The translations under genes were made by a program, and so were the position numbers. From NCBI GenBank assembly GCA_041650835.1, contig JBAZKL010000003.1, positions 35,682-99,681 on the forward strand: DNA of 64,000 nt. The letters are read 5' to 3'. The notes beneath the pieces are model-generated. The model was not told where the DNA came from. It was given only the letters and a program-made list of their open reading frames with translations, and made no database searches. Positions 2,941 through 60,060 of the stretch are shown here, one piece after another. This stretch comes from Candidatus Omnitrophota bacterium. Lineage in GTDB: Bacteria > Omnitrophota > Gorgyraeia > Gygaellales > Profunditerraquicolaceae. The stretch's first letter is position 1; each line of letters opens with the position of its first letter.

Positions 2941-4885
2941 GCTGCCACCTTTTTAAAAGCTCCCGGGTTTTTTTCCGGATGCCCGACCCGCCCCAAACCC
3001 AGCGCTTCCCCAAAAAAGCCAAATAACCCTTTGCCTCCCGGATATCAAGCTCCTCGATAAGGATCAGGCTCTCCATAACGGTCTTATTTTCCTTTCCCCA
3101 GAAATGAGGAAAGACAAAAATCTTATCCAGGGCTTTTTTTGCCGTCGCAGGGTCTTTAAGCAATATCTGTAAAGCTTCTTTCTTCAACAGGATATCCTGC
3201 CCCTCAAGGATAGAAAAGAAATATTCTTTATCAAAAACGGGCAGGCGCCCGAGGGCCTGTAATGCTTCAGACTTCATCAGCGCGTTTGATTTTGAAAAAA
3301 TATATTTCAGGATCTCCTGGGCCAAGGGCGATTGGACAAAGACCAATGCTTCAACGACCTTGCCGATCACCTCCAGATCAGCCGCTTTTTTATCCAGCTC
3401 CTCATAAAAATGAGGCAGTTGATCAGGGAAGAATTTCAGGAAAAACCTCAGGACGTACGCGTTGATAAGGCCTTCTTTAAACATCTTATCGAGGTAAAAC
3501 GGAGAATTCATCACGCTTTCCCGGATGAAAGGTATCAAGTAGTCGAAATCAGTCGGGACATTCTCCTGAAAAACGATATTCTCCACGGAATGCATGATAC
3601 GCTTACGCAGCATTTCCGATTCCGGCACCCAAAAAGGGCCTGTCTTTTCCTTTTCAACCAGGACTTCCAGGATAGAGCTGATATACTCCCATTCATTTGC
3701 CTTCACCGAAAGCTCAAATTCATTCGCTATTTTTTCTAAAATAAGCTGCAATTTCTTTACATCGGCCTCGCTGGTAAGCAAATTAAGCAAGATCAACCGG
3801 TAGTGCGTGTTCAACGTATCCTGCTCCAGCCTGAATTCTTTATCCCGCATCGTGTTTTCCAAGACCACAGAAAGCGCGTGGCGGTAGACCTCAGGGATAT
3901 ATTGATTCTCTTCGGTTGAAAAAAGAGCCTTGATCTTATTGCGCAGGCGGACATTCCCCTTTAAAGCATCAACGTTCTTCGCTTTTTGCTCAATCACGGC
4001 CGCGACTTCCGCGTGTTTGGAATTATTGACCAACTGCGAAAACAATTGAAAGCTCATAGCGTCAAAAGAATGGTCGGAAGTCATTTGGTCCCATAACGCG
4101 TCAGCCAGATTGCTTTCGCTTAAATCCTTAAACAACGCTTTTATTTCATCCGCGCTGTACTTCTTAGTAACTTCTTTATCGTTTAAGATCAACTTTAAAA
4201 GCCCCTTCGAGCAACCGGCAAACCGGTTTCCCTCCTTATCATTTTCTTTGATATATCCGAAGAATTCTTTTACGTTCTTATTAAGGGCCGTGTCTTCAAA
4301 TAGATCTTTGACCTTGAATTTACCGACGATCCTTTCAAAATTATTCGCCGCGTTAGCGATCTTCTGCGGGTCACGCTTATTCATCGCGTCGCGGAATAAA
4401 TATATCCAAATATCTTTACATTCTTCTCCCTCGCTTTTAAGCAATTGGGAAAAATCAAGCTCTTCAACAAGCACATGGCTGATCTTTTCCTGGTCAAGTA
4501 TGTTCTGCAATCCGCCTGAACGTATGATATCACGCGCGGACATAGCCATCTTGGAAAGAAAGACGATAAGCTCCTCAAGGGTTACCCCGGGGCGGATCTC
4601 CAGCCCCTGGATCTTACGGGCGTGAAAGACCAAAGTGATCTCGTTCGAAAGGGCCGCGTAGGTAATAATAAGCCCTTCCACGAACACGGAAGTATCGCTA
4701 AAATTGACCTTTATCGGGTTTGCGTAGTTCAAAAGTTCTTCGATCTTGCCTTTAAGAGCCTCTACTGACTTTATATAATAGGGATGCTCTTGAAAATAAG
4801 CTGAGGCGTTATTAAAAGCGACTTTTAAACTTTTAAAGAATTCAAGATAGGCGGTTTCTTTGTCCATAATAATACTTACCCTCAT
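2933..4885 (-). CDS. hypothetical alpha-helical (HEAT-repeat-like) protein, co-transcribed with HD-GYP (8-nt overlap)
   Basis: long ORF, helical-repeat-like composition, no recognisable catalytic motif. Confidence 0.45.
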   Translation of the reverse strand: MRVSIIMDKETAYLEFFKSLKVAFNNASAYFQEHPYYIKSVEALKGKIEELLNYANPIKVNFSDTSVFVEGLIITYAALSNEITLVFHARKIQGLEIRPGVTLEELIVFLSKMAMSARDIIRSGGLQNILDQEKISHVLVEELDFSQLLKSEGEECKDIWIYLFRDAMNKRDPQKIANAANNFERIVGKFKVKDLFEDTALNKNVKEFFGYIKENDKEGNRFAGCSKGLLKLILNDKEVTKKYSADEIKALFKDLSESNLADALWDQMTSDHSFDAMSFQLFSQLVNNSKHAEVAAVIEQKAKNVDALKGNVRLRNKIKALFSTEENQYIPEVYRHALSVVLENTMRDKEFRLEQDTLNTHYRLILLNLLTSEADVKKLQLILEKIANEFELSVKANEWEYISSILEVLVEKEKTGPFWVPESEMLRKRIMHSVENIVFQENVPTDFDYLIPFIRESVMNSPFYLDKMFKEGLINAYVLRFFLKFFPDQLPHFYEELDKKAADLEVIGKVVEALVFVQSPLAQEILKYIFSKSNALMKSEALQALGRLPVFDKEYFFSILEGQDILLKKEALQILLKDPATAKKALDKIFVFPHFWGKENKTVMESLILIEELDIREAKGYLAFLGKRWVWGGSGIRKKTRELLKRWQRE

Positions 4886-5077
4886 ATTTTCAATATTTTA
4901 CAGCGAAAATGCTTTTTATACAATGAGAAAATTATCGAGCATCAGTTCTTAACTTTGCCTGCCGCTCTACAGAAAACCGATAACCGAAGGCACGAAGACA
5001 CGATACTCTTTACTAATTTCTTAAAAATAGTATAATATAGGAATAAACCTTTCAACCTTAATTACATCCGTAAAACA

Positions 5078-7220: not shown

Positions 7221-8678
7221 TTACAATACCGGCAGATTTGATCTTCCCATCAGGTAAGTATCGATATGGTAGGCGGCGCGCCTTCCTTCCGCGATAGCCC
7301 AAACTATCAGAGACTGCCCGCGCCGGGCGTCTCCCGCGGCAAATACCCCTTTTGCTGCCGTTTTAAACTGCTGATCCGCCAGGATATTACCCCGCTGATC
7401 AAAAGATACTCCCAATGCCTCTAACAAGGGGTTATATTCCACATGTAAAAAACCTAAAGCCAGAATAACCAGGTCGGCCTCTATCTCAAACTCACTGCCT
7501 TTTATTTCTTGTATAACCGGACACCCCTGGGTATCCTTACCATGGGTAACCCTGACACAGGAAAGTTTTTTTACAGCGCCTTTTTCACCGGTAAATTTCT
7601 TAGTCGAAACTGCCCAGTCGCGCTGCCCGCCCTCTTCATGGCTCGTTGAAGTTTTAAGCAGCAGAGGATACTTTGGCCACGGCATGGAGGCAGTCCGGCA
7701 ATCAGGAGGCATAGGGAACAGCTCTATCTGCACCACACAGGCAGCTTTCTGCCTATGAGCTACACCCACGCAATCAGCCCCGGTATCTCCTCCTCCGATA
7801 ACCACTACCTTCTTACCGCGGGCATCAATGGTTTTTTCTTGAGGAATATCCCCGCCGGCAACCCGCTTATTTGATTGCACCAGGTAATCCATGGCAAAAT
7901 GTATTCCGGTGAGGTTTCTTCCTTCTATTGCTAAATCCCGGGGGGTTCGGCTGCCCATAGTAAGAGAAACCGCGTCAAATTCTTTCTTAATATCCGCAAC
8001 ACAGGCTTTATCAATAAGATCCACGCTTGTCTTAAAAACAACCCCTTCTTTCTTTAAAACGCTGACTCTTCGGCTCATGATCTTTTTATCCAGCTTAAAA
8101 TCCGGGATCCCATAAGTAAGAATGCCTCCGATGGCATCATCCTTCTCGAATACGACCACCCGGTGTCCGGCTTTATTCAATTGGTCAGCGCATGCAAGGC
8201 CGGCAGGTCCTGAACCGATAACCGCGACTTTCTTACCGGTACGCTTTTGAGGAGGCTGCGGCTTGACAAACCCATGAGCAAACGCGTATTCAACGACCGC
8301 TAATTCATTTTCACGGATAGTCACCGGATCATCATTAATACCCAACACGCAGGAAAATTCGCAGAGCGCAGGGCAGATCCTGCCGGTTATTTCAGGAAGG
8401 TTATTCGTCGCCTGCAGCATTTCGTATGCTTTTTTCCATTGCCCGCGATGGATCAGGTCATTCCACTCGGGTATATAATTTCCCACCGGGCAGCCCCAAT
8501 GGCAAAAGGGAATCCCGCAATCCATGCAGCGCGACGCCTGTTCTTTTGAATGAATTTCAGGACGAATAAGCGCTACTTCATCAAAATCATGCACTCGTTC
8601 ACACACCGGCCTGTATGCTGATTTCTGGCGCTTTATTTTTAAAAACCCTTTTATATCACCCATACCTATCCCCCTCAA
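7221..8678 (-). CDS. gltD: glutamate synthase small subunit (NADPH-dependent, beta chain)
   Basis: FeS motif CHWGCPVGNYIPEWN...CPALCEFSC, two Rossmann motifs GSGPAGL / GGGDTG. Confidence 0.9.
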   Translation of the reverse strand: MRGIGMGDIKGFLKIKRQKSAYRPVCERVHDFDEVALIRPEIHSKEQASRCMDCGIPFCHWGCPVGNYIPEWNDLIHRGQWKKAYEMLQATNNLPEITGRICPALCEFSCVLGINDDPVTIRENELAVVEYAFAHGFVKPQPPQKRTGKKVAVIGSGPAGLACADQLNKAGHRVVVFEKDDAIGGILTYGIPDFKLDKKIMSRRVSVLKKEGVVFKTSVDLIDKACVADIKKEFDAVSLTMGSRTPRDLAIEGRNLTGIHFAMDYLVQSNKRVAGGDIPQEKTIDARGKKVVVIGGGDTGADCVGVAHRQKAACVVQIELFPMPPDCRTASMPWPKYPLLLKTSTSHEEGGQRDWAVSTKKFTGEKGAVKKLSCVRVTHGKDTQGCPVIQEIKGSEFEIEADLVILALGFLHVEYNPLLEALGVSFDQRGNILADQQFKTAAKGVFAAGDARRGQSLIVWAIAEGRRAAYHIDTYLMGRSNLPVL

Positions 8679-13285: not shown

Positions 13286-13528
13286 TTATAAATGTTTATA
13301 GTTATTCGGATCGATCCCTAATTTTCTTATTTTTGAGCGCATGGTATTGCGGTTGATGCCTAAAATGCGGGCGGCTTTCAGCTGGTTGCCTGCGGTACGC
13401 TCGAGCGCGCGTTCAAACAAGGGCTTCTCTACCGTTTCAATAATGAGCTTATATAATACACCTTTCTTGTTCTGATACAAGAAATTCTCAAATTCAACGA
13501 CTTTGCCTTTTAACGAATTGATATCCAT
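13286..13528 (-). CDS. Fis-family DNA-binding protein, first gene of fis-gltB-gltD operon
   Basis: C-terminal HTH QLKAARILGINRNTMRSKIRKLGI. Confidence 0.7.
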   Translation of the reverse strand: MDINSLKGKVVEFENFLYQNKKGVLYKLIIETVEKPLFERALERTAGNQLKAARILGINRNTMRSKIRKLGIDPNNYKHL

Positions 13529-13695
13529 TCTTGCGCCTTAAAAGGGCCTATGCCCAAAGTTTAAGCAATAGAGAATAAAAAAAAACGCCCACACAAACGC
13601 TTTACTTCGCGCCTGTAATGAACGTCAATGTTCAATCTTTATTCTTTATTACTGTCGGCACAACAATGTGCCTAAATAATATACAATAGCTTCTT

Positions 13696-13731
13696 ATTAT
13701 ATACAAGTAAAAAAATAATAATCCTGGTAAC
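13696..13731 (-). promoter_or_regulatory. promoter for fis-gltBD: GTTACCAGG-N21-TATAAT (extended -10 TGTATATAAT) reading toward lower coordinates
   Basis: plus strand ATTATAtacaagtaaaaaaataataatCCTGGTAAC; same architecture at four other loci. Confidence 0.5.
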
Positions 13732-13828
13732 ACTTATTTTCATGAAACCAGTGACTTATAAAGAAGCGCCACCATACATCATTTATACCTGAACAACAAT
13801 AGTTATGTTTAAGAAAGGCTTTATTAAT

Positions 13829-14002
13829 GAACGGGTCCTGTCTTGGACTGTTTTCTCGCGGGGACGTTTGCCCCGCCCCGGCGTGGCGGGGCTGCACTCA
13901 GGTCGGCTGCGTCGCTCTGCCCGACTTCGTTTATCGAGGGGCATCCGTGCCCGCTCCTTGCCTTTATGCCCCACTCGTAAACAGTCCAAGCCACCCGTTC
14001 AC
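13829..14002. ncRNA. structured element E1 (~174 nt; long closing stem, internal hairpins), paralog of E2; candidate regulatory RNA/DNA element upstream of fis-gltBD promoter
   Basis: ends gaacgggtcctgtcttggactg ... cagtccaagccacccgttcac pair; compensatory changes against E2 in at least three stems. Confidence 0.5.
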
Positions 14003-14175
14003 TAACAGAATTACCAACCAAACACATAACACAGGTCTCATGACACAAACAACTGATTTATTAGATAACGAATCTGGCGGTTTTTCGAGCGCCCTCCTTC
14101 TCCCTTTTATAGACTTGCAATATCTTTGGCGGACTTCGGAGGATAAATAATGTCGATTTTAAAATTTTAGTTAGC

Positions 14176-14342
14176 GGGTGCCGAGGCGCGATTTGAGCAG
14201 GACGTAAAGGCGACGAGCGGGCATGGTGTCCGAGCGCATAGCGCGAGGACGAGCGAGGAAGCCGATGCGAGCGAGCTTTTCCACGCCGGGGAAAAGCGAG
14301 CGTTCCTGCGAAAACGCGCCTCGGCAGGACCCGCGAAATTCC
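14176..14342. repeat. long-hairpin element F1 (14-bp terminal inverted repeat gggtGCCGAGGCgcg...cgcGCCTCGGCagg, GAGCG-rich interior), immediately 3' of GltB-like gene
   Basis: paralog at 18274-18432 with covarying terminal repeat. Confidence 0.5.
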
Positions 14343-14452
14343 TAAACGAAAAGATTGACAGGGACATTCTAGTTATACGACTGTAAAATAAAAACGGGGT
14401 TTGCCCGGACAACACCGGACAAACCCCGCACAACTTCAAAAAAACCGGCGTA

Positions 14453-16045
14453 TTATTTCCCGTCGATTATTTTTTCCGCTTCTTTACGGTAGGCATCCAT
14501 CACATACGGTATCCCTGAGATCTCCTCCGCTTCTTTGGTCAAGCTCATCAGGTCTTTGCGTGAGATGCTCTTGAGGCTGAAATTCCGCGAGCCAGCCATC
14601 AATTGCTGCAACCCTACCCTTAACCGCTGGCTGAAAGTATAAATTCCCACAGCTCCCAACGGGATATCTTTCATATCCTTACCGTATTTCTCCGCCAATT
14701 CTTCATAGCAGACGAAGATCTCTTCCGGCTTGGTACCGAATTCTGATACCGTCGGAGGCAAGGTGCCGTTCTTGATCCAATCGCCGACATTCTTACCGAC
14801 GAATCCGGGGATCATGAGCGCCCGGCCCATACACACAGCCTTGACATACGGAGACCCCATAGCGATCACTTTAAAGATATGATCCTCAAGGGCAAAACCA
14901 CCGGCGATAGCGATATCCGGGATCCGCATTTTCTTCTTGGACAATCTGTCGCAGAATTCCTGCGTCAACGCCTGCAGATAGAATGTGGGAATACCCCATT
15001 CCTGCATCATTCTCCAGGGGCTCATACCGGTGCCGCCGGGAGCGCCGTCAATGGTCAAAAGGTCGATCTTTGCCATTGAGGAGAACTTTAACGCCTGCGC
15101 TAACTCCACCATAGAATAGGCGCCGGTCTTAAGCGTTATCCTCTTAAATCCGAGGTCTCTTAATCGTTTTATCTCTTTCATGAAGCCTTCTTCAGAGACA
15201 AAACCTAAACGGGAATGGCGTTCGAATTCTTTGATAGCGCCGGCTTTAAAAGCTTCCTGGGTAGCATGCACTGTCGGGTCCGGGGTAACGATATACCCGC
15301 GCTTCTTCAATTCAAGCGCCCGTTCAAGGGACTTGACCTTGATCTCACCGCCGATACACTTGGCGCCCTGGCCCCATTTCAGTTCAATGGTATCCAATTT
15401 ATGTTTCTTACGCACATATTCAGCAACGCCTAAACGGGTATCTTCGACGTTCATCTGAACTAAGATCTCGCCAAATCCGTCATGGAACCTTTTATAAAGC
15501 TCGATCCTTCTATCCATATCAGGAGCGCTGGTGATCTTGCCTTTACCGTCTAATTCCAGCTTCGGGTCAATACCGCAGACGTTCTCGCCGCAGACGATGG
15601 TGACACCCGAGATCGCGGCACCGATAGCAAAATGCTCCCAATTCTTACGGGCGATCTCCGTTGAACCGAGCGCGCCGGTAAAAATAGGCATTTTCATTCG
15701 AACCTTCATATCCCAGCCGTATTCGGTCTGAGTATCGACCGAAGGGAACGTAGCGGTATCCGGACCTCCCTCAACTCCCTTAGGCATACCGTTTGCGCCC
15801 TGGGCATACCCCTGGATATTCAAATGGGAATAATCAACCGGATAATCCTTGTCGCCTCCGGCGGTCATTTCACCGAACGGACCCGGATAGATCACTTCTC
15901 TTCCTCTAAATGATGATTTGAATACTTCGCAATTACCGCGGCAAGACTCAAGACAACGGGAACATAACCCTGAGCAAGGCACTACATTTTTAGAACGATT
16001 GAATGTACGGGTTGCGTCATTCCCCCCCGGAGTTCGTAAATTCAT
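14453..16045 (-). CDS. glutamate synthase domain-2-like FMN-dependent protein (archaeal-type GltB homolog)
   Basis: 530 aa; glutamate synthase FMN domain-like sequence (GAPGGTGMSPW..., IAGGF) preceded by Cys-rich N-terminus. Confidence 0.75.
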   Translation of the reverse strand: MNLRTPGGNDATRTFNRSKNVVPCSGLCSRCLESCRGNCEVFKSSFRGREVIYPGPFGEMTAGGDKDYPVDYSHLNIQGYAQGANGMPKGVEGGPDTATFPSVDTQTEYGWDMKVRMKMPIFTGALGSTEIARKNWEHFAIGAAISGVTIVCGENVCGIDPKLELDGKGKITSAPDMDRRIELYKRFHDGFGEILVQMNVEDTRLGVAEYVRKKHKLDTIELKWGQGAKCIGGEIKVKSLERALELKKRGYIVTPDPTVHATQEAFKAGAIKEFERHSRLGFVSEEGFMKEIKRLRDLGFKRITLKTGAYSMVELAQALKFSSMAKIDLLTIDGAPGGTGMSPWRMMQEWGIPTFYLQALTQEFCDRLSKKKMRIPDIAIAGGFALEDHIFKVIAMGSPYVKAVCMGRALMIPGFVGKNVGDWIKNGTLPPTVSEFGTKPEEIFVCYEELAEKYGKDMKDIPLGAVGIYTFSQRLRVGLQQLMAGSRNFSLKSISRKDLMSLTKEAEEISGIPYVMDAYRKEAEKIIDGK

Positions 16046-16125
16046 AATCCCCCCTTTTTTGTTGAAGAAAGCCTACCTGCTTAATAATTATGCACATTAT
16101 GCTTATCTTTTGGGCACCATTGCTC

Positions 16126-16243
16126 AAAAAAAAAGACGACCTTCTCACGAGAGAATGGACGCCATTGTCCACTGCAAATCATGTAAATTGTATCTTATCA
16201 TAAAAGGTCGTTTTGTCAACTATTGGATTAATTGGGTAACTGG
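16126..16243 (-). promoter_or_regulatory. promoter (TTGACA-N17-TAAGAT with upstream GGTAAC-type motif) and leader with small hairpins followed by U9 run, for GltB-like gene
   Basis: minus strand GTTACCCAAttaatccaatagTTGACAaaacgaccttttatgaTAAGAT; downstream ggtcgtcttttttttt. Confidence 0.4.
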
Positions 16244-16332
16244 CGCGGAATAAATGACTTTCTTTCCTATAAAAATAGTAACCAAACACACGTAAGTCTA
16301 AGACAATGGTCTATGATCGCAGGAGATCGGGT

Positions 16333-16506
16333 GAACGGGTCCTGTCTTGGTTTGTTTTTCGCAGGGACGTTTGTCCTGCCCCAGCGTGGCAGGACTGCAC
16401 TCCCTTTCAGCCCCTCACTCTGCCCGATAATTTTTTAGAGGGGCAACCATGCCCGCTCGGGGCTTCCAGAGGCCCTGCTCAAAACTAAACCAAGCCACCC
16501 GTTCAC
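16333..16506. ncRNA. structured element E2 (paralog of E1), upstream of GltB-like gene promoter
   Basis: same 174-nt length and termini as E1; stems gcaggg/ccctgc, tcctgcc/ggcagga, cttggttt/aaaccaag covary with E1. Confidence 0.5.
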
Positions 16507-16568
16507 AATAAAAATGCTATCAAGACACATAATACAGATTACAGGACACAAGTATTCCATGGTAGATG

Positions 16569-16730
16569 GAAAACTTTACGGTTTTTGCTTTAAGCGCACA
16601 TTTGAAAACTTTCGGCACAAGGGTTTTATCTGCAGTGCGCAAAGATTTACGGCGAGTTGAAGCACGCTCTTTACGTAAGTCTATTGCGTAAACGAGCCGT
16701 AAACTGTAGCGCACGGCGAAAGTTTTTTTG
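16569..16730. repeat. rod-like structured repeat K1 (aaactttacgg...ccgtaaa termini), paralog at 22896-23066
   Basis: shared blocks aaactttacggtt-tgct-aagcgcacatt-gaaaacttt and gttgaagcacg; 5' gaaaactttcg pairs with 3' cgaaagtttt. Confidence 0.45.
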
Positions 16731-16800
16731 CTGCAGAAAGCAGCACACCTGCGCATTTTCCAATAAGCGCAGGGTGAAGCGTAAGCAAAAAGCGGAAAGT
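16730..16800. repeat. REP-like hairpin unit (ctgcagaaagcagcacacc-tgcgca-ttttccaataa-gcgcagggtg)
   Basis: same family as 60-360, 6075-6150, 33735-33790, 60010-60060. Confidence 0.5.
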
Positions 16801-16920
16801 TATATCGCAAAAATAGTGGATAATAGAATATCTATGGCTAGGGAATCAAGGAAACCGGGGATCGTGGTAAAAAAGTCACAAGACGCAACCGCTGTGATTA
16901 AATCGAACCGTCCCCTATTT

Positions 16921-17577
16921 TTAACGAGGATGCAGCTTCTTCCAGCGCTCAGTAAAAAGAAAAAAGACTCCCGGGCCGAAGGAGCACAACATGACTGCCA
17001 GGCCGAAAGCGATCCCCAGGAATGTGCCAAAGCCGGCGCAGCAATAATTCCTGTAGCGCGCCAGGATATGTAACGGGACCGCCACCAGAAGTTCCAGGAT
17101 ACTGCCGCGAAAAAAGCTCAGGCGGATCCTTTCTAAGAAAGATTGCGGTGCCAGCTTCCTGCTCCAGACATAAAAAACGCATCCCCAAACAACCCAAGAC
17201 GCTCCCAACGCAGCAAGCGCCAGCCATTCTTTCATGTTTTTACCCTGGCTCACGGTTTCATTGATCGCCAAGACTATCCCCGCAACAAGTAATGCCATCA
17301 GCAGAGAAGAAAACACAACCACCGGCACAATGCTACGTTGTGAAACCGGCCGGCGATCGGTCAGGTCTACATGAACATCGAGCAACGCTGCCTGGGCAGC
17401 GAGAAACAAGGCAAAGCCCACCCAATAAGGCCAATGAGTAAAAAGCTCCTCGAATGCTTTGAGATTTATATTATTTTTAGGGTCAAGGCTCAAAAAAGAC
17501 AGGATAGTGACAGGAAAGGTAAAAATGATAATGATCAATCCGTACAGCGCCAATACCACCAGAGCCCATTTTTTCAT
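16921..17577 (-). CDS. integral membrane protein, unknown function
   Basis: 218 aa, several hydrophobic helices. Confidence 0.5.
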   Translation of the reverse strand: MKKWALVVLALYGLIIIIFTFPVTILSFLSLDPKNNINLKAFEELFTHWPYWVGFALFLAAQAALLDVHVDLTDRRPVSQRSIVPVVVFSSLLMALLVAGIVLAINETVSQGKNMKEWLALAALGASWVVWGCVFYVWSRKLAPQSFLERIRLSFFRGSILELLVAVPLHILARYRNYCCAGFGTFLGIAFGLAVMLCSFGPGVFFLFTERWKKLHPR

Positions 17578-17620
17578 ACCATCCCCCTTAATAACAACCG
17601 TATATACCGTTAATTTTAAA

Positions 17621-17748
17621 AGCTAAAGGCTAAATAACAAAAGAAGATTAAAGGTATAAGGTTTAATTTTAAAATTTCCTACCTGCCGGTAGGCAGGAAC
17701 CTTTTGCCTTTGAATTTTCTTTGTTATTTATTCTTTAGCCTTTAAACT
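17621..17748. repeat. AT-rich ~130-bp palindromic element (copy 2 of 4)
   Basis: arms aaaggctaaataacaaaagaagattaaaggtataaggtttaatttt / mirror image, central cctacctgccggtaggcagg. Confidence 0.55.
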
Positions 17749-17759
17749 TACATCAGTAC

Positions 17760-17987
17760 CTATACTTCTTTCTTTATCACCTTGAAAAACTGTAGCTTCT
17801 TACACTGAGGGCATAAACCCAGGGTCCTTTTCCCCTTACTCTTGGCGTAAGCGCGCACGCCGCCGGCAGCCCAATATGATATCGAATAACCGCACTGCGG
17901 GCATTCCAGAAACCATTTCTTGGATTCATCCTCGACTTTCTGAAAAACCTTCTTAGGCAGTAACTTTTTGAGAATTTTGCGTAACAT
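17760..17987 (-). CDS. small zinc-ribbon protein (CxxC...CxxC)
   Basis: 75 aa, CPQCGYS...CPQCKK. Confidence 0.4.
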   Translation of the reverse strand: MLRKILKKLLPKKVFQKVEDESKKWFLECPQCGYSISYWAAGGVRAYAKSKGKRTLGLCPQCKKLQFFKVIKKEV

Positions 17988-18273
17988 AGCGCATCCTCCT
18001 TACCTTACCATAATCCCAAACATATAAATCTCCTATTCCTTCGAAGCCCTACCAATGAGAAAAAAAACCTGCCATATCCCCTTAATTCTAACATCGATCG
18101 ATCTTGCATATATTCCCTTTCTTCCGGTTTATAATAACCTCAACTTAATAAACCTTCCGGCAGTATTACAGATAAATTACCCCTTATTGATTTATTGTAC
18201 CGCTCATATACCGCTTGTCAATGTTTTAAGGGGAGTAAAGCGGGGGGAAACTTGGTCAAGATGAGAGTTATGC

Positions 18274-18432
18274 GGCTGCCGAGGCATGTTTTGAGCGGCA
18301 CATAAGGAAACTTGAGCGGGCACGGCTTGCCGCATTCTCAAATAATTACCAAGAGCGAAAGTTTCCGCTGAGCGCAGATTTTTCACGCTGGGAAAAATCA
18401 AGCGATGCCGCGAAAAATATGCCTCGGCAGCC
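18274..18432. repeat. long-hairpin element F2 (ggctGCCGAGGCat...atGCCTCGGCagcc), immediately 3' of amidotransferase gene
   Basis: paralog of F1. Confidence 0.5.
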
Positions 18433-18475
18433 ACAACATTATCTCAGCTCGAAATCTTTCAGTAGTATAAAATGA

Positions 18476-19180
18476 CTAAGCGGAAACCGTAGATCTGATT
18501 ATATTGAGAAAATTACGATAGAGAATATTGGCGTGCGCGTCAAAGGAAGCTTTGTTTTCTCGGAATTCATTGCGGATCTTTGTAAAAACCGGTTGTTGTT
18601 TATTTTTTGCGTAAGCATCGATCCAGGAATCAACGATCGCCGGAGTCACTTCGATATGGAATTGCAGACCATAAGCATTCTTACCCACGCGAAACGCCTG
18701 ATGCGGGCATTTCTCAGACGAAGCTAACAGCACCCCGCCTTTGGGAATTTCGAACATATCCTCATGCCACTGAAAAACCTTTAAATCAAAAGGCAAATCT
18801 TTAAAAAGGGCATCTCGCCTGCCGGCTTCAGTAAACCGCACCTCTGAAAACCCGATTTCTTTTTGCGGCGAATTCCCCACTTTCGCTTCGGCTGCTTTGG
18901 CCAAGAGCTGGCTGCCCAGGCAAATCCCAAGAAAAGGGATACCTTTCTTGAGGATTTCTTTTATGAAAGCATCTTCTCCTTTTAAAAAAGGGAATTTATT
19001 ATCTTCATAAACATTCATCGGCCCGCCCAAAGAAATGACCGCCTCTATTGCGCTCAGGTTGACCGGTAATACTTCCCCCTTGCTCAGGTCAATAACAGAA
19101 AAAGAACGGGCAGTATCGGTCAAGAAACTTCCGATACTGCCCGGCCCTTCGATATCTATATGCTTTACCGCAATGATCAT
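18476..19180 (-). CDS. class I glutamine amidotransferase-like protein
   Basis: GICLGSQLL nucleophile elbow, His/Glu region FHIE. Confidence 0.75.
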   Translation of the reverse strand: MIIAVKHIDIEGPGSIGSFLTDTARSFSVIDLSKGEVLPVNLSAIEAVISLGGPMNVYEDNKFPFLKGEDAFIKEILKKGIPFLGICLGSQLLAKAAEAKVGNSPQKEIGFSEVRFTEAGRRDALFKDLPFDLKVFQWHEDMFEIPKGGVLLASSEKCPHQAFRVGKNAYGLQFHIEVTPAIVDSWIDAYAKNKQQPVFTKIRNEFRENKASFDAHANILYRNFLNIIRSTVSA

Positions 19181-22742: not shown

Positions 22743-22895
22743 AGCCGGCTCCTTTTTGTTATGATTATTAATAGTATAGTAAAACACAGATTAAAAGAAC
22801 GTTAAAATAACATTAAGTTTCTTTAATGATTGCAAGACACATGACACAAGTCGCAAGTGGTCAGTAGTCCACAGTCCATAGTCGATAGTAATTGA

Positions 22896-23066
22896 TAAAC
22901 TTTACGGTTATGCTGAAGCGCACATTAGAAAACTTTTTCCAAAAGTCTGCGAGGAATTACGAGGTGTTGAAGCACGATGCTCTCCCGTAAATCTACTGGC
23001 GGAAACACCGAGTAAACCGAAGCAGACGGAAAAAGTTTTCAGTGCGCGCAAGCAAAACCGTAAAGT
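22896..23066. repeat. rod-like structured repeat K2 (paralog of K1)
   Basis: aaactttacggtt...aaaccgtaaagtt termini; 5' gaaaactttttcc pairs with 3' ggaaaaagttttc. Confidence 0.45.
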
Positions 23067-23079
23067 TACATCATAAAAG

Positions 23080-41560: not shown

Positions 41561-41791
41561 TTAAAATTTCCCCGATAATACAAATGAAAAAACCAGGGCA
41601 TAAATAGTGATCGCCTCGATAAAGGCGCATCCGATGGTCATGTTGATCAATATTTTCGTTGAAGCTTCCGGCTGGCGGGCAATCGCATCCATCGCGGAAG
41701 AAACAGCTTTTCCTAATCCTATCGCAGACCCAAACGCAGCTACCCCTAATCCTAAGGGAAGGCTCAATGCAAGTGCGAATTTCAGATCCAT
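41561..41791 (-). CDS. atpE: ATP synthase subunit c
   Basis: 76 aa two-helix hairpin with carboxylate in helix 2 (FIEAITIYALV). Confidence 0.85.
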   Translation of the reverse strand: MDLKFALALSLPLGLGVAAFGSAIGLGKAVSSAMDAIARQPEASTKILINMTIGCAFIEAITIYALVFSFVLSGKF

Positions 41792-41809
41792 ACTTCCTCC
41801 TTTTTTTTC

Positions 41810-42559: not shown

Positions 42560-42810
42560 AATTTCCCCTGCTATTCTGATTATTTCTATAAATGGGGTAT
42601 GGGTAAAGGTAAGGCGGTTAGTTTAGTAGTTAGGAAAGGTAGTTTGGGTTCAAGATCTAACTACCTTTCCCAACAACCAAACAAATATCCTAACCTTAAC
42701 CATAATCTAACACTATAGGTCATAGACCATCAACCGTGGACTAACGCCTACCTGTTTACCCCGAGCTTGTCGAGGGGTGTCTTGTGTCATGCGACATGTG
42801 CCTACAACCT
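42560..42810. repeat. mosaic repeat region between atpZ-like gene and atpB
   Basis: shares gttagtttagtagttaggaaagg, ccccgagcttgtcgagggg and cttgtgtcatgcgacatgtg modules with 51590-52130. Confidence 0.5.
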
Positions 42811-47229: not shown

Positions 47230-47500
47230 ATATTAGTTTAGCATAAATCGCCTGATAAAACGAATTTTATATTTAATACCCCCTATGGACTATCGAATAC
47301 TTGTGTCATGTGTCTGGATTCCCTTATCCCTTAGTCCCGGCTCCGGGTGCCCCAGTCGCCAGTGCCCCAGCATCCCAGTATTTTTACGATGTAACTTTCC
47401 AGTCTCTCATGGACCGTGGATCATGGACTATGGACCATCGACTACTTGTGTCTTGTGTCATGTGACCTGCGACCAAATCCCCTCATCACCTGAGGAAGCT
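47230..47500. repeat. mosaic repeats (GGACTATGGACCATCGACTACTTGTGTCATGTG-type) between pstB and phoU
   Basis: two internal copies; related to 22840-22890 and 51760-51800. Confidence 0.45.
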
Positions 47501-51589: not shown

Positions 51590-51885
51590 GAGAATACTAT
51601 ACACTTCCCATATTATATCCATGTGAGGGCCATGTTAAATCTATGTAAAGTTTTGGAGTATTATCGAGGGGGTGTTCACAAGAAATTCAGTACAGGGATA
51701 TCCGGGAAAACTGGTAATCCGAGACTAGGGGATCGGGTGATCGGGGAATACAGACACATGACACAAGACACAGGACACACGTAGTCCATGGTCCACGGTC
51801 GATGGTCCACAGTTATAGGGTGTGGTTAAGGTTAAGATGTTAGTTTGGTTGTTAGGTTAAGGAGATGGGTTATTGAACGTTAATG
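51590..51885. repeat. mosaic of dispersed repeat modules
   Basis: ccgggaaaactggtaatccgagactaggggatcgggtgatcgggg, cagacacatgacacaagacacaggacac, tggaccatcgac, ggttaaggtta modules. Confidence 0.5.
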
Positions 51886-60009: not shown

Positions 60010-60060
60010 TGCGCAGAAAGCGCGCACCGGCCTTTCCAATAAGGCCGGGTGTTATCGGCC
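60010..60060. repeat. REP-like hairpin unit (gcgcagaaagcgcgcaccggcctttccaataaggccgggtg)
   Basis: family member with YYCCAATAAG loop. Confidence 0.5.

Follow-up and report, generated by a model that had tools for sequence, protein, structure and literature searches.

The two related elements at 13829-14002 and 16333-16506 of the window (the whole stretch of DNA analysed, 64,000 nucleotides long) belong to a hitherto undescribed family of intergenic repeats of about 175 nt in Omnitrophota, here called family A, which is almost certainly a dispersed repeat family and not a regulator of nitrogen genes. All members have a five-helix fold (P1-P5) in common, with invariant unpaired blocks, and it is nearly beyond doubt that this fold is under selection.

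Four copies in a nitrogen-assimilation gene cluster

Where the original prediction had recognised two elements, a covariance model (CM R1) finds exactly four copies of family A in the window: E1 (13829-14002, plus strand, 187.7 bits), E2 (16333-16506, plus strand, 178.7 bits), E3 (14167-14340, minus strand, 167.1 bits; inverted-repeat pairs I3-I5, I8 and I9) and E4 (18268-18438, minus strand, 157.2 bits; repeat D4 and inverted repeat I2). They lie within 4.6 kb, inside a gene cluster that encodes GS-III, GATase, a GltB-like protein and GltB. E1 and E2 are, as claimed, equal in length (174 nt each), share their termini and are 74-76% identical, in agreement with the predicted ∼75%; a three-block pattern taken from the elements matches four times in the window and not once in 100 shuffles, so that their likeness is far above chance. 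The compensatory changes quoted for the pair are present as well, with GCCCCGC/GCGGGGC in the P3 stem of one copy and GUCCUGC/GCAGGAC in that of the other, and CUUGGACU/AGUCCAAG compared with CUUGGUUU/AAACCAAG in the closing stem. In E1, on the plus strand, P1 spans 13829-13836/13993-14000 plus 13842-13853/13979-13990, P2 spans 13858-13863/13969-13974, the P3 hairpin occupies 13870-13892 with its loop (CCCGGCGTG) at 13877-13885, P5 lies at about 13918-13943, and the invariant blocks TCGCTC and CCGTGCCCGCTC are found at 13912-13917 and 13945-13956. The folding z-score is about -5 for E1 and likewise for E3, whose MFE fold contains P1, P2, P3 and P5.

The position of the copies relative to the neighbouring genes does not fit the role of upstream regulators that had been proposed for them. 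When read on their conserved-loop strand, E1 and E2 run antisense to fis-gltB and the GltB-like gene, and E2 is antisense to the minus-strand genes that flank it. The promoter-like site of the GltB-like gene (16192-16219, minus strand, TTGACA-16-TAAGAT) falls between that gene and E2; E2 is located upstream of this site, which argues against it as a control element of the gene. The stretch is conserved at locus L126 of a close relative despite the missing E2. E3 and E1 are convergent, with a gap of 164 nt. Because the strong intrinsic terminator of the GltB-like gene (14394-14429, minus strand, a 15-pair stem followed by TTTTATTTTA), which is also conserved in L126, separates E3 from that gene, E3 is no ordinary 3'-UTR element at this site. 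The GATase gene (18476-19180) ends the GS-III/GATase gene pair; E4 starts about 35 nt past its stop codon and is followed by a promoter-like site at 18194-18221 on the minus strand.

A conserved five-helix fold

The long closing stem P1 carries a conserved internal loop; P2, P3 and P4 meet in a three-way junction, and P5 stacks on P4 over a further, highly conserved internal loop. The invariant unpaired positions, about 25 nt in all, comprise the P3 loop CCCRGCGUG and the blocks UCGCUC and CCRUGCCCGCUC, while the helices are free to vary in sequence as long as complementarity is kept. In a MAFFT alignment, which was fitted to no structure, 86.7% of the pairing cells hold complementary bases, whereas shuffles reach 66% and slid partners 35-49%; of the 47 pairs, 44 vary on both sides, and the covariation score is 0.49 against 0.16. 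The CM alignment agrees. The compensatory evolution first suggested by E1 and E2 is real, and the family shows very strong covariation. P4 is supported by the pairs 81:168, 82:167, 88:159 and 94:154, and its native X-Y duplexes are more stable than non-native ones (-9.7 vs. -7.2 kcal/mol, p=1e-7). Median pairwise identity is 58% among 99 copies (of the matches listed), with only 8 pairs at ≥93%.

Two structural details had been read differently. The inner hairpins of E1 and E2, proposed to be mutually exclusive, lack conservation: GCRGGR forms P2 by long-range pairing with YCCYGC near the 3' end in E3, E4 and the family at large, and the local inner hairpin of E1 and E2 is a by-product of the G/C-rich P3 stem. 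CTCTGCCCGA and GAGGGGCA, taken for conserved blocks, are in fact opposite strands of the variable hairpin P5, and only TCGCTC and CCRTGCCCGCTC among these blocks are invariant family-wide. The unit is discrete, with sharp ends, a terminal stem of 20-25 bp and termini GCGGG.../...CCCGC with variable extensions; these ends are inverted repeats (P1) that covary like a helix and differ in length between copies. There are also short variants of about 78 nt, which consist of P1 and a small hairpin only.

Distribution and gene neighbourhood

A scan of public genomes gave at least 117 loci, with at least ∼105 full-length copies by CM among the matches listed, scoring 60-179 bits and all in Omnitrophota-type MAGs. 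Those labelled 'Planctomycetales' encode proteins that share up to 93% identity with proteins from Omnitrophota-labelled MAGs, and a 530-aa protein of the window is 90-92% identical to Omnitrophota proteins. All counts were taken copy by copy, ignoring phylogenetic kinship. Single MAGs hold at least 6-7 copies (e.g., CAZPNW01, CAYHBB01, JAPLLR01), and the number per genome seems to range from a handful to a few tens. As anticipated, the elements are absent from Rfam: family A has no match in Rfam 15, cmscan of the window at the gathering threshold returned no matches, and the search of 13400-19000 at E≤10 gave nothing relevant; the likeness to 6S RNA (RF00013) and the glutamine riboswitch (RF01739) found no support either, with no match to either model. 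We found no description of the family in the literature that could be searched.

In 8-kb genome slices around the copies, the strand of the copy is also that of the upstream gene in 64 of 98 cases (among the matches listed), and the stop codon of this gene lies at a median distance of 24 nt, typically 0-60 and often 0-5 nt. The 192 neighbouring proteins form 137 clusters (among the matches listed) and belong to housekeeping families such as LeuRS, GroEL, RuvB, QueA, MurJ, DapA, LpxB, IlvC and Band 7, encoded in conserved synteny. Among the matches listed, no protein family recurs beside the copies and no partner protein was found, no mobile-element protein recurs among 594 ORFs at ∼100 loci, no transposase-like cluster appears among the neighbouring ORFs of the slices and no RAYT gene came to light there, and no conserved promoter or terminator accompanies the copies. 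The flanks are A-rich on the 3' side (CCCGCUAAAA) and U-rich on the 5' side, on both strands. An intrinsic (Rho-independent) terminator, a reading considered and rejected, would have a U tract behind its GC-rich stem, where family A has an A-rich 3' flank.

Gain, loss and exchange of copies

Copies come and go between close relatives. At L126 (97% protein identity), E2 is absent from the orthologous position and an orthologous E1 is present; at L127 (91% identity), the whole E3-E1 block is absent, and the relatives L001-L007, with the same genes, have no elements. Copies that are 96-97% identical occur at unrelated loci of other genomes (among the matches listed), as between E1 and those at L115 and L083 (96-97%), E2 and those at L019 and L098 (96%), and E3 and the two at L032 (97%). 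Those retained at orthologous sites have diverged about as much as the flanking genes, with their helices intact. Truncated 5' fragments adjoin full copies, and the P5 module has been exchanged between the orthologous copies L016 and L124. Neighbouring copies are convergent in 15 cases, divergent in 3 and in tandem in 5 (window and matches listed together), and form inverted doublets with gaps of 9-64 nt at L070, L016 and L088. Neither a target-site duplication (∼85 copies) nor a fixed flanking tetranucleotide was found at the copy ends among the matches listed. Since family A consists of dispersed repeats, the alternative first offered for E1 and E2, direct repeats flanking a gene cassette, came nearer the truth, but it is still wrong, as E1/E2 and E3/E4 are interleaved and inverted.

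RNA or DNA

The folded species is probably the RNA of the sense strand. Tetraloops of the type cUNCGg (UUCG, UACG, UCCG, UGCG) cap seven P5 hairpins and one hairpin at the 3' end of L010, compared with a single case on the opposite strand; P5 holds 20 G-U against 1 A-C; and, relative to co-directional flanking genes, 52 copies are sense and 24 antisense (among the matches listed). These caps, wobbles and 2:1 sense bias favour a fold at the RNA level, on the given strand. On the other hand, P2 and P3 together have only 6 G-U and 6 A-C in ∼1,400 cells, and in P1 the two are equally common (41 and 48); this near absence of wobble in P2 and P3, with parity in P1, looks more like DNA than like a typical RNA. 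In 93 of 99 copies (of the matches listed), it is the reverse strand that folds with the lower MFE, which is probably an effect of G-richness and lends no support to the sense strand either. The antisense copies, one third of the total, are preserved as well as the sense ones (among the matches listed), which a purely cis-acting mRNA element does not readily explain.

Comparison with known repeats and RNAs

In its truncated fragments and mosaic clusters, family A resembles REP/BIME, ERIC or MITE-type repeats. REP elements consist of one palindrome (20-40 nt) and number in the hundreds; they and BIMEs are extragenic hairpins located within or at the ends of operons, often only a few nucleotides from a stop codon, with an orientation that alternates between neighbours, mosaics with other motifs and variation between strains. 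Family A shares with REP/BIME and REPINs the extragenic, multi-copy, hairpin-forming character and the location at gene 3' ends, and with REP/BIME the alternating orientation in clusters, the mosaics and the varying presence between relatives. However, where REPs have one palindrome of 20-40 nt and a conserved 5' tetranucleotide, a unit of family A has ∼175 nt, five helices with a three-way junction and some 25 unpaired nucleotides that are invariant, and it seems to occur in fewer copies. ERIC/IRU, Correia (NEMIS), BOX and RUP elements come close in size (100-200 nt), in their imperfect terminal inverted repeats that yield a long RNA stem and in their occurrence in either orientation in transcribed intergenic regions, and they also have internally deleted short variants that keep their ends, like those of 78 nt here. 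Family A differs from them in that it shows no TA or other target-site duplication among the matches listed, is deeply diverged (median 58%) and yet compensated in all helices, conserves loops and not termini, and has orthologous copies that persist across species. Of the features expected from a MITE, family A shows polymorphic insertion and, at unrelated loci, near-identical copies, but neither a target-site duplication (∼85 copies) nor a related autonomous transposase element (∼100 loci) was found among the matches listed.

Integron attC sites and CALINs likewise preserve structure over sequence, lie directly 3' of an ORF and end in a paired stem that includes unpaired bases; the family-A termini, however, do not fit RYYYAAC...GTTRRRY, its length exceeds 141 nt, its internal loops are invariant, its orientation is mixed and mostly convergent, unlike the uniform one of attC cassette arrays near intI, and its flanking genes are syntenic housekeeping genes and not cassettes. 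6S RNA is similar in size (∼180 nt) and in its long closing stem, but has a central bubble in place of a branched, three-way-junction interior and one or two copies per genome instead of many, and the glutamine riboswitch (glnA RNA), expected in 5' leaders of nitrogen genes, is set apart by the antisense orientation of E1 and E2 to their neighbouring genes and by the absence of any family-wide association with glutamine genes. HEARO/IscB and TnpB omega RNAs and IS110 bridge RNAs are also dispersed, multi-copy, covarying RNAs of 150-300 nt, but the family-A loci among the matches listed hold no nuclease or recombinase ORF, no match to the corresponding Rfam families was obtained, and the pattern of variable stems and fixed loops is the opposite of that of a guide-carrying RNA.

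Possible roles

Taken as a whole, the account that we favour on balance is one of dispersed structured repeats that serve as RNA modules in cis, and our best guess from sequence comparison is a module recognised by a protein within operon transcripts. Each copy folds, most likely as RNA on the given strand, into the conserved five-helix structure, with the invariant unpaired nucleotides as the likely recognition surface of a putative factor. Copies are placed between co-directional genes, typically just past a stop codon, without gene-specific regulation, and are gained, lost, truncated and recombined in the manner of REP/BIME, ERIC or MITE-type repeats. Those of the window owe their place in a nitrogen-assimilation cluster to an accident of insertion. 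Inside operon transcripts they may act in cis, through the factor that reads the loops, on 3'-end protection, processing, or translation termination or coupling at the preceding stop codon. We hold this cis-acting role only tentatively, and the position of E3 behind a strong terminator speaks against it. That family A might be a new class of large structured RNA, protein-binding or catalytic (self-processing), which has spread to intercistronic sites all over Omnitrophota genomes and punctuates or tunes operon transcripts, is an unlikely extension; the accompanying families B and C would then be more of an unexplored Omnitrophota RNA repertoire.

An essentially selfish element that folds as single-stranded DNA, on the lagging-strand template or during transfer, and is a substrate of an HUH/Y1 transposase or a tyrosine recombinase would have models in REP/REPIN with RAYT, in the PATEs of IS200/IS605 and in integron attC with its tyrosine recombinase. 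Helices that are nearly pure Watson-Crick and show no excess of G-U over A-C in P1, P2 and P3, equally intact copies in both orientations, REPIN-like inverted doublets, presence/absence polymorphism among close relatives, near-identical copies at unrelated loci, and nested or truncated copies in mosaics with other repeat families would all suit it. We nevertheless give it only an outside chance, for cUNCGg is a feature of RNA stability and is biased 8:1 to one strand, the P5 wobble is strand-specific at 20:1, and neither target-site duplications and fixed tetranucleotides nor a recurring transposase or recombinase (∼100 loci) were found among the matches listed; moreover, the low copy number and deep divergence are not those of recent bursts, copies persist at orthologous sites with their helices intact, and the mixed orientation within 5 kb of the window leaves no simple replication-strand rule. 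Rather improbable is a family of stable, trans-acting RNAs of ∼175 nt, excised from host transcripts and closed at both ends by P1, which would jointly bind or sequester a protein, for instance by way of the invariant loops, as CsrB, 6S or Y RNAs do. The discrete unit with its terminal stem, loops invariant in all paralogues over drifting stems, the short P1 variants, the sense bias relative to host genes and sub-families 96-97% identical across genomes are in its favour, but the only obvious transcription runs antisense to one third of the copies, and the matches listed have no conserved promoter or terminator; that copies are dispensable locus by locus fits dosage redundancy without giving support.

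For the reading that polycistronic transcripts are punctuated by a self-cleaving ribozyme, or by an RNA with another catalytic or processing role, one may point to the multi-helix junction with its many invariant junction and loop nucleotides, to a possible pseudoknot in which the P3 loop (R-G-C-G) could pair with UCGCUC, and to multi-copy, intercistronic placement in clusters with other structured families, as is also known from bacterial twister, hammerhead and RAGATH motifs. With no Rfam ribozyme match even at E≤10, a size (∼175 nt) large for the class and a putative pseudoknot that lacks covariation because both of its sides are invariant, we consider this very unlikely on sequence grounds. 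Least of all do we credit the original prediction of a 6S- or riboswitch-like RNA, or a DNA upstream activating element, for the fis-gltB-gltD and GltB-like nitrogen operons. All four window copies do lie inside the GS-III, GATase, GltB-like and GltB cluster, but at least ∼105 members among the matches listed adjoin unrelated housekeeping genes, and repeats that lie among genes of every sort are no nitrogen-gene switches. Further GltB-like and gltB loci are devoid of family A, the 97% relative conserves the promoter region without E2, no 6S or glutamine riboswitch model in Rfam matches, and four or more copies per genome region are un-6S-like. Absence from homologous loci, named beforehand as evidence against the claim, is what L127, L126 (for E2) and L001-L007 display.

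Wider relevance and associated repeats

The uncultivated Omnitrophota are bacteria of very small size whose genomes are compact, and to our knowledge almost nothing is known of their non-coding DNA; family A gives them a well-defined non-coding element with several copies per genome in many species. Should it be no more than a selfish repeat, it still marks genome rearrangement and causes assembly breaks, warns against local 'regulatory' readings of repeats, and would be an unusually complex case of structure-dependent propagation. If a host factor reads the invariant loops in RNA, operons would be punctuated by an RNA module of a new kind, which may even represent a new class of large non-coding RNA or ribozyme.

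Family A forms mosaic clusters with two other repeat families, B and C. In the window, a structured member of family B (16572-16802, plus strand) directly follows E2, and the order A-then-B is seen at many further loci; in the sequence beside A copies, 145 similar pairs are found downstream and 29 upstream. At L126, a B copy is inverted and adjoins the gene-proximal flank that lacks E2. A short CA-rich flank motif (ACACATAACACAGGTCTCATGACACAA), which is a small repeat module of its own, follows E1 at 14022-14050 (plus strand) and E2 at 16524-16552, and the related motif TGTGTCATGCGACCTGAGACTTGTGTCC occurs at L083 in the opposite orientation, upstream of an E1-type copy.

Four copies of a structured repeat in the window

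The two elements of the original prediction, E1 (13829-14002, forward strand) and E2 (16333-16506, forward strand), do form a pair of equal length, each being 174 nt long with a common start (GAACGGGTCCTGTCTTGG), a common end (CCAAGCCACCCGTTCAC) and 74-76% identity, and the compensatory differences quoted for them are found in the sequence. A repeat search (pairs I3-I5, I8, I9 and D4) adds diverged partners on the opposite strand, E3 (14167-14340) and E4 (18268-18438). E2 lies upstream of the promoter-like site of the GltB-like gene and on the other strand, E3 beyond the intrinsic terminator of the same gene, and E4 about 35 nt past the GATase gene, with a strong promoter-like site coming after it. 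The GltB-like gene encodes a 530-aa FMN-binding GltS-family protein, whose 90-92% identity to proteins from Omnitrophota metagenome-assembled genomes (MAGs) ties the source genome to this group. RNAalifold finds 42 pairs on the four sequences, with double changes in 22, and a covariance model (CM) built from them, R1, recovers only E1-E4 from the 64-kb window, at 157-188 bits, the rest scoring ≤10 bits apart from reverse-strand echoes.

A five-helix fold

The family represented by E1-E4, family A, was aligned with MAFFT from 84 non-redundant copies (alignment A5), fitted to no structure, and a hand-specified 47-pair structure was scored on the result. Standard pairs occupy 86.7% of the cells in A5, against 66.3% after shuffling and 35-49% with the partners slid; 44 of the 47 pairs are changed on both sides (shuffled mean 37.2), and the covariation score is 0.49, against 0.16 when shuffled and 0.07-0.14 when slid. 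A CM-based alignment is 91.4% paired and contains 785 doubly changed cells, compared with 195 in shuffles. On this comparative evidence, strong selection on a single-strand fold is shown for family A.

A conserved internal loop, with ...UCCUG... opposite ...CCA..., divides the closing stem, P1, into two segments. P2 pairs GCRGGR with a distal YCCYGC in E3, E4 and the family at large; the mutually exclusive inner hairpins that had been proposed can be drawn in E1 and E2 only. P3 is a hairpin whose stem is hypervariable and whose 9-nt loop, CCCRGCGUG, is constant. P4 is a long-range helix. Canonical pairing reaches 96-98% at 81:168 and 82:167, where three Watson-Crick types occur, and its native 5'/3' strand combinations form more stable duplexes than mismatched ones (p=1e-7). 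P5, a variable hairpin, is split from P4 by an internal loop with the nearly invariant strands UCGCUC and (A)CCRUGCCCGCUC. RNAalifold further proposes a possible pseudoknot between the P3 loop (RGCG) and the CGCU of UCGCUC, both sides of which are invariant and so offer no covariation to judge it by. Shortened variants, about 78 nt long, retain P1 and a small hairpin.

Family size, hosts and databases

A scan of one genome per species with the pattern TCGCRG-N12-18-CCCRGCGTG-N45-75-TGCCCGCTC, which is strict and thus skews the sample toward conserved copies, returned at least 117 loci; genomes were examined as 8-kb slices, and the counts ignore phylogeny. R1 confirms at least about 105 full-length copies, at 60-179 bits, with at least 4-7 in single MAGs. 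Every confirmed copy among the matches listed comes from a MAG whose label is Omnitrophota/Omnitrophica, 'bacterium' or 'uncultured Planctomycetales/Planctomycetia'. MAGs with the Planctomycetales/Planctomycetia label encode proteins as much as 93% identical to ones from Omnitrophota-labelled MAGs, and we therefore treat them as the same lineage. Across 99 copies the median pairwise identity stands at 58%, with 93% or more reached by only 8 pairs among the matches listed.

Matches in actinomycete and other high-GC genomes, which are unconfirmed by the CM, were regarded as chance, as was the single match in a scan of viral contigs, located within a 1,233-aa ORF on a contig judged high-GC by its ORF pattern. 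The 72% GC MAG JACQWT01, labelled Deltaproteobacteria, has at least 10 pattern matches and no CM match, and seemingly carries a different, high-copy repeat (loci L039, L044, L046, L051, L064, L077, L089, L108 and L110) in which the three blocks recur in unchanged order (TCGCGG...CCCAGCGTG...TGCCCGCTC). The resemblance is either fortuitous and magnified by the number of copies, or a sign of very remote kinship.

Scanning the whole window against Rfam 15 at the gathering threshold, as the original prediction had suggested, gave no match, and nothing relevant appeared in 13400-19000 at E≤10. In eight related loci the gathering threshold returned only unrelated riboswitches elsewhere, an ordinary FMN riboswitch (L088, 5123-5247) and an ordinary c-di-GMP-I riboswitch (L032, 3760-3847), so that Rfam detection works in these genomes. 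Literature searches on Omnitrophota/Omnitrophica RNA motifs, repeats, structured RNA and the motif strings yielded no relevant description. Family A thus appears to lack a description in Rfam 15 or the searchable literature.

Genomic context

The neighbourhood of the copies is diverse: the flanking proteins, 192 among the matches listed, fall into 137 clusters, and the 58 upstream same-strand genes include those for LeuRS, GroEL, RuvB, QueA, MurJ, DapA, LpxB, IlvC, FolD and Band 7 proteins. No protein family consistently adjoins the copies in the fetched loci, for which reason links to a nitrogen regulon, TnpB/IscB omega-RNAs, retrons or CRISPR were all dropped; nor is there a recurrent mobile-element protein among 594 ORFs. 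What recurs is position. Of 98 cases, 64 have an upstream gene on the same strand, the median distance being 24 nt, and in many cases its stop codon abuts or overlaps the first nucleotides of P1. A copy often fills the whole intergenic gap of an operon (e.g., L015, 4139-4308, which is 4 and 10 nt from its two neighbours). Adjacent copies are convergent in 15 cases, divergent in 3 and tandem in 5, and doublets with 9-64 nt spacing occur in L070, L016 and L088.

The flanks, U-rich 5' and A-rich 3', simply extend P1. Neither a shared promoter upstream nor a U tract downstream of the copies was found, so that the idea of an independent gene is left unsupported and that of a terminator was rejected; a search for target-site duplications around the copies found none. 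ORFs bracketed by convergent copies (L085, L094, L017 and the window) encode small membrane proteins 3' of a Band 7 gene or are ordinary, with no homology or mobility evident, and the idea of cassettes with mobile cargo was set aside.

Turnover, mosaics and two further families

E1, E2 and E3 each have 96-97% identical copies at unrelated loci in other genomes, the match being confined to the element. For roughly one copy in three, another species has a counterpart at the orthologous site. Such counterparts have diverged to about the same extent as their flanking genes (mean identity 0.69 vs 0.63, a rough measure) with the helices kept, which points to maintenance in situ or to frequent conversion between copies. 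Mosaicism is seen in the orthologous copies L016:3905 and L124:1693, identical but for a swapped P5 module, and in truncated 5' fragments ending in GUUUCUCGC that abut full copies in L041, L061, L101 and L038.

The DNA downstream of A copies is repetitive in its own right (145 similar pairs, vs 29 upstream) and defines a structured family B as well as a third family, C. Family B (about 190 nt) often follows an A copy in the same orientation, as in the window (16572-16802, forward strand), in L083 (about 4825-5000) and in L008, L087, L026, L063, L106 and L075; its closing stem UUUUGCCGAGGG.../...CCCGAGAGCAAAA carries a symmetric tandem G-A/A-G mismatch, and it has no Rfam match. Family C (AAUGAAUCUG...GAUUUUAGCCA...) is found in L017 (2760-2990, reverse strand) and downstream of A in L019, L062, L098, L073, L068, L038 and L034, and occupies the same kinds of intergenic slots as A: the slot that follows the Band 7 gene is taken by A in four species and, in L017, by C with part of B.

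The proposed nitrogen link

E1 and E2 had been read as regulators of nitrogen-assimilation operons, and relatives of the locus speak against this. In L126 (97% protein identity) E3 and E1 are present at their sites and E2 is missing, with an inverted family B repeat at the position of the window's E2 and B. In L127 (91% identity) the intergenic region measures 207 nt, vs about 925 nt in the window, the terminator, E3, the spacer and E1 being gone all together. Seven further loci with homologues of the 530-aa protein contain no family A copy. The four copies lie inside the GS-III/GATase/GltB-like/GltB cluster because copies cluster locally, as they do elsewhere (four in 5.5 kb in L032, three in 2.4 kb in L016). 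Given such absences from homologous loci, and neighbours that are diverse housekeeping genes with no gene-specific association, the nitrogen-regulator reading is essentially excluded and has only the slimmest chance of being right.

One of the seven loci, L007, gives a weak 22.6-bit CM match (7406-7509). It belongs to a 104-nt element beside two tRNA genes (7400-7510) that has only the P1-like closing stem (GGGGGCCUGCCGUCGUUUUG...CUCAAAACGACGUCACCCCUCCC) in common with family A and a different interior; the P1 module may thus be shared with other elements. In L126, the E3 orthologue carries a 34-nt perfect hairpin (2255-2290, region GCCCCGUUAGAAA-CCACG-UUUUCUAACGGGGC) inserted inside the invariant CCAUGCCCGCUC, with GCCCG duplicated on each side; the hairpin represents either a very small mobile palindrome or an expansion that the loop tolerates.

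RNA or DNA, and mode of action

Together, these observations show family A to be a phylum-wide, multi-copy, sharply bounded intergenic repeat that is gained, lost and recombined, with no gene-specific association. Nearest in behaviour are REP/BIME and ERIC/Correia/BOX-type repeats, with which it shares position, orientation pattern, mosaicism, strain variability and short derivatives. It differs from REPs in size and in not being a single palindrome, from MITEs and ERIC in lacking target-site duplications, and from attC in lacking core sites and array orientation; it fits no Rfam model, and the five-helix fold, three-way junction, invariant loops and deep compensatory divergence are its own.

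The evidence on strand, and on RNA versus DNA, is mixed. By direct motif listing, C(UNCG)G caps, whose extra stability is a property of RNA, close seven P5 hairpins of different sub-families and one hairpin at the L010 3' end, in every N variant (UUCG, UACG, UCCG and UGCG); the reverse strand has only one. P5 contains 20 G-U pairs vs 1 A-C, and of the copies between co-directional genes 52 are sense and 24 antisense, about 3.2 sd off 1:1 on raw counts that ignore phylogeny; replication strand was rejected as the cause of this 2:1 bias, as the window copies alternate + - + - within 5 kb. On the opposing side, P2 and P3 are >98% Watson-Crick and essentially wobble-free, P1 has 48 A-C and 41 G-U, and antisense copies are as intact as sense ones. 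The minimum free energy is lower on the reverse strand in 93 of 99 copies, a comparison that we judge uninformative, probably because that strand is G-rich, and still enter as evidence against RNA on the given strand. On balance, we lean towards RNA from the sense, loop-bearing strand, as given here, being the folded species; its main rival, a DNA-level selfish element mobilised via a folded single strand, seems unlikely.

If sense-strand RNA is what folds, a trans-acting factor would read its invariant unpaired nucleotides, and the module would act on its host transcript, as suggested by the many copies that start at an intra-operon stop codon. The effect might be 3'-end protection or processing; alternatively, a ribosome that has to open P1 before arriving at the stop codon might be disturbed in termination or coupling. 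Such interference is reported for E. coli REPs located no more than 15 nt from a stop codon. We put forward this factor-read module at stop codons tentatively. A stable RNA acting in trans after release from many transcripts strikes us as rather improbable, and a self-processing RNA as very improbable.

Other repeats in and around the window

A short CA/GT-rich motif (TGTGTCATGMGACCTG...) at 14022-14050 and 16524-16552 accompanies E1-type copies in either orientation, and is also present in L083, upstream of 4575, and in L018, upstream of both copies, which have 55 nt of upstream flank in common at 98% identity. At 17611-17750, between the gene for a 218-aa membrane protein and a 76-aa ORF, lies a large AT-rich inverted repeat with 53-nt arms, 79% complementary, for which the sole Rfam hint is IMES-5 at chance level (E=5). 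BLASTN against the fetched Omnitrophota loci gives matches for six other intergenic stretches of the window (22833-23068, 41568-41806, 42595-42701, 47319-47477, 51752-51806 and 60013-60052), which may be either additional repeat families or non-coding elements that are conserved.
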